From the IMG/VR virus record IMGVR_UViG_2703718805_000010: 12,579 nucleotides of DNA; one strand, given 5' to 3'. Below the pieces are notes generated by a model. It did no database searches. It was not told the origin of the DNA and saw nothing but the letters and a program-made list of their open reading frames with translations. The DNA comes from a virus. Taxonomy: Duplodnaviria; Heunggongvirae; Uroviricota; Caudoviricetes. Positions 10,393-10,755 of the stretch are shown here, piece after piece. Each line of letters starts with the position of its first letter. The first letter of the stretch is position 1. Both the position numbers and the translations under genes were made by a program.

Positions 10393-10697
10393 TTTATTCA
10401 CAGGTGAGGTAGAGTGCGTGCGCCGGACACGGATAAGAATCCGGCACTGACAGTTTACTGAAAAGGATATATCCCTGAAAAGTCAGGGCATAACACGAAA
10501 GCGCCCGGAGAAGTTAGTCTCTCTGTATAGGTCGTCGTTAAATTTAATTCGATCGTGCGCTTCCGGTTGTGGCAATCCGCGAAATGGCGCGGCGGTAAGT
10601 ATGGCGGGGTTATTCCTTCCCCCGTTGAGGACACCGGGTTGTCAGGTTGACCATACGCTTAAGTGACAACTCCGCTGCAACGCCCTCTGTTATCAAT

Positions 10698-10755
10698 TTT
10701 CTGGTGACTTTTGGCGGTATCAGTTTTACTCCGTGACTGCTCTGCCGCCCTTTTT
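10698..10755 (+). ncRNA. dicF: DicF small regulatory RNA (about 53 nt plus U-tail)
   Basis: TTTCTGGTGACTTTTGGCGGTATCAGTTTTACTCCGTGACTGCTCTGCCGCCC (10698..10750) followed by TTTTT matches recalled E. coli DicF over its whole length with about one mismatch. It lies between ydfC-like and dicB, as in Qin. Confidence 0.75.

Follow-up and report, generated by a model that had tools for sequence, protein, structure and literature searches.

A covariation-supported four-way-junction domain in the leader of the prophage small RNA DicF

How is the small RNA (sRNA) DicF released from the long untranslated leader in which it is transcribed, and what does the rest of that leader do? These questions are raised by a locus of the IMG/VR virus record IMGVR_UViG_2703718805_000010 (Caudoviricetes). 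The window, by which we mean the whole stretch of 12,579 nucleotides (nt) that was analyzed, carries this locus on its plus strand at positions 10393–10755, within the ydfABC-dicF-dicB (dicBF-type) early operon of a lambdoid prophage. A preliminary description, made from the letters of the sequence, had recognized DicF at the end of a noncoding stretch and had pointed to two hairpins of that stretch, here called H1 and H2, as possible processing or stability elements. Alignment showed that the untranslated leader (approximately 305 nt) is the same leader as that of the Qin prophage of Escherichia coli K-12, where it starts 42 nt after ydfC. The two are 90% identical over 10399–10755 and near-identical from approximately 10540 on, with only a handful of differences in 10540–10755 (a few substitutions and a 1-nt indel, the DicF base described below included). 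This identifies the leader as the "long untranslated region containing dicF" described earlier. It begins right after an open reading frame (ORF) of 124 amino acids (aa), which ends at 10392, and no plus-strand ORF of at least 40 aa was found between 10393 and 10819.

To establish the identity of the sRNA, the locus was compared with the Rfam DicF family (RF00039) and with K-12. The RF00039 match at 10699–10750 on the plus strand scored 75.8 bits against a gathering score of 48 (E = 1.3e-15), covered model positions 1–52 of 52 and contained no non-standard pairs. A TTTTT run at 10751–10755 directly follows the body on its 3' side, and the 53-nt form of K-12 corresponds to a start at 10698. DicF thus spans 10698–10755, with a 53-nt body (10698–10750) and the U tail of an intrinsic terminator, and it has the architecture of RF00039: a single-stranded 5' region of approximately 14 nt, a terminator hairpin, and a U tail. 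The locus is an ordinary copy of the known prophage sRNA DicF, whose stable RNA of approximately 53 nt and whose repression of ftsZ are demonstrated in K-12 only. With respect to K-12 MG1655, the body carries a single mismatch, at DicF nucleotide 12, where the G of K-12 is replaced by T at 10709 (U in the RNA). Among 82 canonical DicF copies this position was G in 70, A in 8 and T in 4, and it is weakly conserved in the Rfam consensus; by these counts U12 is a minor natural allele, and the position is known to be soft. Published target maps of DicF show that ftsZ pairs with its 3' region and xylR with its 5' end. Because the variant lies in the 5' single-stranded part and ftsZ pairing involves the 3' region, an effect of U12 on ftsZ pairing is unlikely, and targets that pair with the 5' end may be affected. 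The preliminary description had thus located DicF and its U tail correctly, had rightly noticed one base that departs from the K-12 sequence, and had set the start of the noncoding stretch where the 124-aa ORF ends.

The main structure of the leader lies between DicF and the variable upstream part. Folding of 10566–10682 in isolation gave a minimum free energy (MFE) structure consisting of a closing helix and three arms, and this fold defines a conserved 116-nt four-way-junction domain at 10566–10681 (plus strand, module B). Helix P1 (10566–10573 with 10674–10681) closes the junction. It is followed by helix P2 (10577–10581 with 10588–10592), by helix P2b (10593–10596 with 10633–10636), which carries helix P3 (10603–10609 with 10620–10626), and by helix P4 (10637–10644 with 10664–10671), whose 19-nt loop is near-invariant. 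In a MAFFT alignment of 67 distinct sequences, 94.7% of the cells were able to pair, compared with 36–60% when the partners were slid against each other, and 8 pairs were changed on both sides, compared with 2.0 ± 1.0 in shuffles. A second alignment of 71 distinct sequences, in which P1-type plasmid copies were added and aligned to a covariance model, gave 95.8% of pairing cells against 36–59% with slid partners, and 15 of the 32 pairs changed on both sides against 4.0 ± 1.4, a count reached by 0 of 500 shuffles; this alignment leans towards the structure, being fitted to it. The four-way-junction fold is supported by covariation. Helix P3 occurs in at least 6 unrelated sequence versions, each of which forms a hairpin, and a divergent copy on an E. 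fergusonii plasmid keeps helices P1, P3, and P4 via compensatory changes, with two P4 pairs changed on both sides and helix P1 extended to 11 bp. Helix P2 showed no covariation and is absent from the E. fergusonii copy. For helix P4, an alternative proposed by RNAalifold (GGUUG/CAACC) was dropped in favor of GGUUGUCA/UGACAACU, both sides of which change in the P1-type and E. fergusonii copies.

The junction may be further closed by a pseudoknot (10599–10656, plus strand), in which GUAUGG at 10599–10604, between helices P2b and P3, would pair with CCAUAC at 10651–10656, in the loop of helix P4. This pairing was possible in 99.3% of cells, against 16–67% with slid partners, and both strands are kept in the most divergent member of our collection of loci (L253). 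A single one of its pairs covaries (UA in 63 sequences, CG in 2, and UG in 2), and the pseudoknot is a plausible but thinly supported candidate. The covariance model built on the fold (R1) gave true copies 80–164 bits, whereas 710 kb of chance loci, taken from GC-rich genomes in a loose scan for two short motifs with a variable gap, did not exceed 17 bits; among the matches listed in that scan, only the Escherichia and Shigella loci were real. Rfam 15, used over the leader at gathering and at permissive thresholds, returned nothing besides DicF and a sub-threshold STnc100 match. Among known riboswitch and leader families, the sole match to 10550–10700 at E ≤ 10 was gut-2, with 9.9 bits, and none fits the domain. 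We also considered a tRNA-like element and rejected it, as ARAGORN detected no tRNA or tmRNA in the window; no tRNA-like Rfam family matched either. No description of the domain was found in the literature searched; an earlier drawing of part of the fold may exist in the older dicF papers or the P1 genome paper. The 116-nt domain is thus apparently undescribed, and a candidate new RNA motif within a locus that has been studied for 35 years.

The distribution of the domain was analyzed as well. It was present in 4,315 of 5,426 complete E. coli genomes (approximately 80%), at 8,964 places and in up to 8 copies per genome, and among the matches listed none of these copies lay under an annotated feature. 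It was also found in 510 plasmids, mostly P1-like; P1-type plasmid copies with 60–80% identity number roughly 340. The segment 10566–10689 occurs alone, at 77–89% identity and between unrelated flanks, in cdtI, Ayreon, and Stx2c-type phages, in Salmonella phage F1055, in a phage deposited as an Actinobacillus phage, and in P1, P7, and SJ46. In 123 of 126 copies, a hairpin followed by a T run stood within 49–96 nt on the 3' side of the domain, and the association of a constant domain with a terminator-type sRNA is therefore a regular feature of these loci. The downstream sRNAs themselves came in at least 8 seed and hairpin versions (for example at loci L003, L006, L007, L048, L078, L084, and L209). 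They include canonical DicF (position 12 being G, A, or U), forms that combine the DicF hairpin with another 5' seed or the DicF seed with another hairpin, and the types of cdtI, Salmonella, and P1; the cdtI-type sRNA gave no match to RF00039. Such varied seeds on one domain are as expected of a carrier for interchangeable sRNAs.

Three phages showed further peculiarities. Phage phiSTEC1589-Stx1c (L004, 2620–2740) has lost the interior of the domain and retains a short hairpin (GGUUGUG-AAUA-ACAAC) followed by a DicF-like sRNA (35.6 bits, below threshold), and an N antiterminator gene is annotated upstream. The phage deposited as Actinobacillus phage vB_Apl-pPE4 (L128, 2489–2760) carries E. coli-type sequence that is 84% identical to the domain, and its sRNA and terminator are duplicated in tandem; its host assignment or assembly may be questionable. 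In Ayreon (L256, 2755–2835, and likewise in L003), two hairpins approximately 35 nt after the predicted PL start are partly similar to HK022 putL (ACGGCG...CAUGCGUCG), and this element is possibly an antiterminator of the put type upstream of the domain.

To see which parts of the leader are constrained, conservation was measured by segment as the mean pairwise difference among 39 distinct full-length DicF-type loci. The values were 0.14 for 10399–10421, 0.08 for H1 and H2, and 0.035–0.14 over module A, which is the variable, dispensable 5' part of the leader (10393–10495, plus strand) that holds both hairpins. They reached 0.16 in 10508–10553 and dropped to 0.004 in 10554–10565, the most conserved segment of the locus, followed by 0.014–0.022 in 10566–10681 outside one hairpin and 0.013 in the linker 10682–10697. 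Conservation thus peaks at the 3' arm of the RNase III stem described next, at the core of the domain, and at the linker.

The leader is known to be processed by the enzymes RNase III and RNase E (PMC5069750, PMC9438474, PMC10448788), as the preliminary description had stated. In K-12, a 190-nt DicF RNA depends on RNase III and accumulates upon inactivation of RNase E, and formation of the 53-nt form, and with it of its 5' end, needs RNase E (PMC10448788). Counting 190 nt back from the 3' end of DicF leads to approximately 10561, within the conserved segment 10554–10565. This segment is the 3' arm of an inverted repeat (I3, 12 nt, 83% complementary) whose 5' arm is 10496–10507, and the two arms, with the hypervariable apical region 10508–10553 between them, form a probable RNase III stem-loop (10496–10565, plus strand). 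From the published size and sequence figure, the RNase III cut in the window would fall at approximately 10561 (± approximately 5 nt). Most alleles have a local stem of 10+2 bp with approximately −20 kcal/mol; that of the window reaches −13 kcal/mol owing to two substitutions. The window allele has C at 10505 and U at 10555. The domain is followed by the single-stranded linker GCCCUCUGUUAUCAAU (10682–10697, plus strand), which is 16 nt long, U/A-rich, and identical to that of K-12, and the RNase E cut that produces the 5' end of DicF would lie between 10697 and 10698. RNase E prefers to cut between RN and WUU, and the end of the linker, with AAU before and UUU after the cut, fits this preference. 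On these coordinates, the published 190-nt "long DicF" would consist of a few nt, the 116-nt domain, the 16-nt linker, and DicF. The stem 10496–10507/10554–10565, the domain 10566–10681, and the linker 10682–10697 are therefore our candidate processing elements.

The 3' arm of the RNase III stem has a second possible partner downstream of DicF, at 10783–10796 on the plus strand (inverted repeat I6, CGTGCGCT/AGCGCACG, 8 of 8 positions). The resulting distal duplex, 10554–10565 with 10783–10796, has 17 bp and −20 kcal/mol and would enclose the domain and DicF in read-through transcripts; cdtI-type phages have GUGCUCU and AGAGCAU at the equivalent places, with both strands changed. As the sole RNase III substrate this duplex was not adopted, since it is impossible in transcripts that end at the DicF terminator, and it was kept as an alternative. 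In addition, the motif GCGTGCGC/CGTGCGCT is present at two places of the leader (10416–10423 and 10554–10561) and its complement at one place downstream of DicF (10789–10796), and several mutually exclusive long-range pairings are therefore possible.

We favor an account in which the locus is a DicF maturation unit and the domain its folding, processing, and stability scaffold, and we give this account as a whole an even chance of being right. Transcription would start at a repressor-controlled promoter upstream of ydfA and proceed through ydfA, ydfB, ydfC, the 124-aa ORF, and the 305-nt leader, the first ~100 nt of which would be a variable filler holding H1 and H2. RNase III would cut the stem 10496–10507/10554–10565 at approximately 10561 and release an RNA of approximately 190 nt (domain, linker, and DicF with its terminator), and RNase E would then cut the linker between 10697 and 10698 and set free the active 53-nt DicF. 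In this process, the domain would fold co-transcriptionally and prevent base pairing between the seed of DicF and upstream mRNA. It would also maintain a duplex at the RNase III site and leave the RNase E site unpaired, and with the protected, structured 5' end that it provides, the 190-nt form could build up as a reservoir. We infer this scaffold function, and prefer it, because it fits the published precursor-product relation, the position of the domain between the two cleavage sites, and its coupling to interchangeable sRNAs.

Several observations weigh against this account. The 19-nt loop of helix P4 and the GGCGCGGCGGUAAGUAUGG junction are near-invariant even in P1-type copies of 77% identity, which hints at a specific partner or a tertiary fold, since a pure scaffold should tolerate changes in its loops. 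Phages of the phiSTEC1589 type carry a DicF-like sRNA locus with only a short hairpin resembling helix P1 left, so the interior of the domain is not needed for a DicF-type RNA. In phage P1, the domain starts approximately 23 nt after the Pban start site, and release by RNase III would be unnecessary there. The RNase III duplex has two possible partners, local and distal, and the local stem of the window is weaker than the common allele (−13 versus approximately −20 kcal/mol). Finally, single-sequence MFE folds of the whole 190-nt RNA prefer a competing structure, with the domain paired with the 3' arm of the terminator.

The hairpins that the preliminary description had singled out for processing or stability exist exactly as it gave them. 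H1 (10422–10445, plus strand) consists of GCCGGA at 10422–10427, a 12-nt loop, and TCCGGC at 10440–10445, and H2 (10473–10488, plus strand) of CCCTGA at 10473–10478, an AAAG loop, and TCAGGG at 10483–10488. That they serve RNase III or RNase E is improbable in our view. In 305 nt, two perfect 6-bp hairpins were present where 0.85 ± 1.14 were expected, and at least 2 occurred in 195 of 1,000 dinucleotide shuffles; H1 and H2 thus do not exceed chance. Folded as a whole, the stretch reaches a z-score of only −1.96. Of 127 related loci, all of which have an sRNA and the conserved core, 55 lack H1 and 48 lack H2, roughly 40% in either case, and in both hairpins variability is 4–5 times that of the conserved core. 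They lie approximately 75–140 nt upstream of the RNase III cut placed above and are excluded from the mature DicF species. In favor of a function, the stem of H1 is kept wherever its segment exists, though with no compensatory changes, and one H2 allele, CTCTGA/TCAGAG in 2 loci, is compensatory. Against it, H2 is only a 4-bp stem (CTGA/TCAG) in the commonest allele, that of K-12, in which processing was demonstrated, and it sits on one of the left mosaic junctions of the related loci (10399, 10417, 10428, 10473, 10478, and 10566). The preliminary description is thus upheld for the identity of DicF, the long leader, its processing, and the base change, but not for H1 and H2 as processing or stability elements. 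Two further features of this variable part were observed. U12 gives a perfect 8-nt complementarity between the seed of DicF (UGACUUUU, 10705–10712) and H2 (AAAAGUCA, 10478–10485), with a mismatch for the G12 of K-12, which may be due to chance. In K-12 (L001, approximately 2985–3130), a strong Shine-Dalgarno sequence (TAAGGAG) is followed 10 nt later by GTG and a frame of approximately 40 codons across the variable leader; the window is without this Shine-Dalgarno sequence, and some alleles have GTC for GTG.

Could the conserved stretch downstream of these hairpins have no function of its own, and have been carried along with DicF by recent prophage recombination? Lambdoid phages are mosaic, the block 10540–10930 is near-identical in DicF-type loci and may have spread recently, and the thermodynamic z-scores, that of the isolated domain included, are an unremarkable −1.5 to −2.0. 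This explanation is nonetheless disfavored already by the covariation: pairing is kept through 15 doubly changed pairs and through the replacement of helix P3 by at least 6 sequences that are all hairpins, and the domain persists as an island of 77–89% identity with both flanks unrelated in the cdtI type, in P1 and P7, and on the E. fergusonii plasmid. We accordingly hold it to be a poor explanation. Coding is hardly credible as the reason for conservation. The minus strand of the window has ORFs at 10455–10634 (59 aa, GTG start) and 10659–10814 (51 aa, TTG start), and hypothetical proteins are annotated there in some phage records; against a small protein on either strand, homologues differ by indels of 1, 4, and 5 nt within helix P3, and the ORFs over the domain fall into 62 strand and length classes with no conserved frame, all of those in the window with non-ATG starts. 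It is also very doubtful that the domain is a riboswitch-like or factor-dependent sensor that either lets the DicF terminator form or pairs its own GGCGG-rich 5' half with that terminator's 3' arm, and so sets how much DicF is made relative to dicB and early-gene expression. Transcriptional riboswitches have this layout, in which a junction domain precedes an intrinsic terminator; in MFE folds of the RNAs of 190 nt and 267 nt, 10586–10609 is paired with the 3' arm of the terminator; and, on the case made for this idea, all sRNA versions keep GGCGG...CCGCC terminator arms. However, P1-type terminators have different arms, the 5' arm of the terminator itself is adjacent and should win kinetically, and the junction fold has the covariation support that the competing fold lacks; in addition, no known riboswitch class matches and the gene context suggests no ligand.

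The domain could instead be an autonomous functional RNA, either a put-like, cis-acting modifier of RNA polymerase for partial read-through of the DicF terminator into dicB, the exonuclease gene, xis, and int, or a binder of a host or phage protein, with the RNA of approximately 190 nt as the ancestral functional unit. We think this unlikely, although much speaks for it. It is always situated in an immediate-early operon under repressor control, with a terminator directly downstream that transcription has to pass on its way to further genes; besides its place close to the Pban start in P1, cdtI, Ayreon, F1055, and pPE4 have it as the first conserved element behind the repressor gene. Between promoter and domain, the window shows no evident N-like protein, and the sole phage type seen without the domain interior is annotated with an N gene. 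The loops are near-invariant, the pseudoknot is likely on this view, and there is a short resemblance of GGGUUGUCAGGUUGAC to the put sequence GGGUUCAGGAUGAAC. On the other side, the 190-nt RNA of K-12 behaves as a precursor of the 53-nt form, Ayreon- and cdtI-type phages already have, at the put position, an element of two hairpins that is partly put-like and lies upstream of the domain, and a four-way junction is unlike the two-stem put RNA. Like put of HK022, the domain is a structured RNA in a repressor-controlled early operon, upstream of terminators and without a dedicated protein, and both share a motif around UCAGGNUGA. By contrast, put is approximately 70 nt long with two stem-loops, whereas the domain is a 116-nt four-way junction, and to render RNA polymerase resistant to terminators, by way of the beta-prime zinc-binding domain, is the known action of put. 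When putL and putR were compared and model R1 was run against the HK022 immunity region, no match was found at E ≤ 1, and the resemblance is limited to the motif of approximately 9 nt. A broader and tentative idea, which we hold with little confidence, is that the domain is an autonomous phage RNA element that, with the RNase III stem and the RNase E linker, makes up a mobile launch pad for interchangeable sRNA seeds in the repressor-controlled early operons of temperate enterobacterial phages, lambdoid and P1-like, and that it is no passive structure but acts on a specific partner, such as RNA polymerase at the terminator or an RNA-binding protein.

DicF and its processing pathway have long been known; what this analysis adds is that a conserved, covariation-supported domain makes up the body of the published 190-nt "long DicF". 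The role of this 5' domain, whether the 190-nt RNA is only a precursor, and how phages swap sRNA specificities on a constant platform can now be tested. Among the closest known systems is the Qin locus of K-12 itself (RF00039, with 190-, 72-, and 53-nt forms), which has the same order of ydfA, ydfB, ydfC, leader, dicF, dicB, and a ydfD-like gene, is near-identical from approximately 10540 to dicB, and shares the RNase E linker. The window differs from it in the 124-aa ORF, in U12, in the weaker RNase III stem, and in a LexA/S24-type cI rather than DicA. The sRNAs that RNase E releases from 3' UTRs of mRNAs or from operons, at sites set by neighboring stem-loops, such as MicL, CpxQ, and SroC (PMC9438474), likewise have a U-rich single-stranded site beside a stable structure and a 3' end at an intrinsic terminator, whereas the structure here is a large conserved four-way junction that is mobile with different sRNAs, and an RNase III step precedes RNase E. 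In the ban leader of phage P1, the "dicF-like region" (AF234172, 68791–68892) includes a true homologue of the domain of 116 nt, which scores 79.6 bits with R1 and has a terminator hairpin behind it; what resembles the dicF region of K-12 there is this domain and not DicF. In the P1 locus (L127, 2488–2680), this annotated region corresponds to the 3' half of the domain plus an unrelated terminator, and the Pban start from which it is read is controlled by C1. The tail and terminator of P1 are unrelated to DicF, with no match to RF00039, and tRNA genes follow. By its layout, P1 should make its own RNA of approximately 185 nt.

Beyond DicF, the spacer up to dicB is itself structured (10748–10957, plus strand). 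It is closed by a 19-bp duplex, 10760–10778 with 10889–10907 (inverted repeat I1, 19 nt, 89% complementary), that ends just before the Shine-Dalgarno sequence of dicB. The expected 3' end of the published 72-nt DicF lies at approximately 10769, within the 5' arm of this duplex, which is probably a second RNase III site that gives the 72-nt form and which could couple processing to the translation of dicB. The spacer resembles Rfam STnc100 (RF02076) in its long outer stem, which is this duplex, and several inner hairpins and aligns with it over the full model; its score of 34.2 bits is below the gathering score of 47, and it is a relative at best.

The location of the locus in a dicBF-type operon is borne out by its neighbors, with Pfam matches to DUF1391 (ydfA, 96 bits), DicB (125.5 bits), and DUF1482 (54 bits). 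The 363-nt segment 10393–10755 is 100% identical to a prophage next to ompW in E. coli 2013C-3181, where the order is a LexA/S24-type repressor gene, ydfA, ydfB, ydfC, a 124-aa hypothetical gene, an unannotated gap, dicB, a DUF1482 gene, an exonuclease gene, xis, and int, and the RefSeq annotation of this identical stretch agrees with the operon location. The 124-aa ORF (10018–10392, stop included) belongs to phrog_6937, of unknown function, and has no Pfam family. Compared with K-12, it is inserted between ydfC and the leader, its stop lies 7 nt before the homology to K-12 resumes at 10399, and this insertion is the only structural novelty of the window. The next gene of the operon, dicB (10925–11113, plus strand; Pfam PF05358), is annotated as such in E. 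coli 2013C-3181 and is accessible only via read-through of the DicF terminator. A consensus scan detected no internal promoter in the leader. For K-12, none is reported in the literature (PMC10448788).

Two minor observations concern other parts of the prophage. A sok antitoxin RNA of the hok/sok type I toxin-antitoxin system was detected in the window at 3727–3907 on the minus strand (RF01794, 61 bits against a gathering score of 59). For the best whole-window match (97.7% identity), the annotation lists a restriction endonuclease of the NgoMIV family and a DNA cytosine methyltransferase, and the prophage may thus carry a restriction-modification system.

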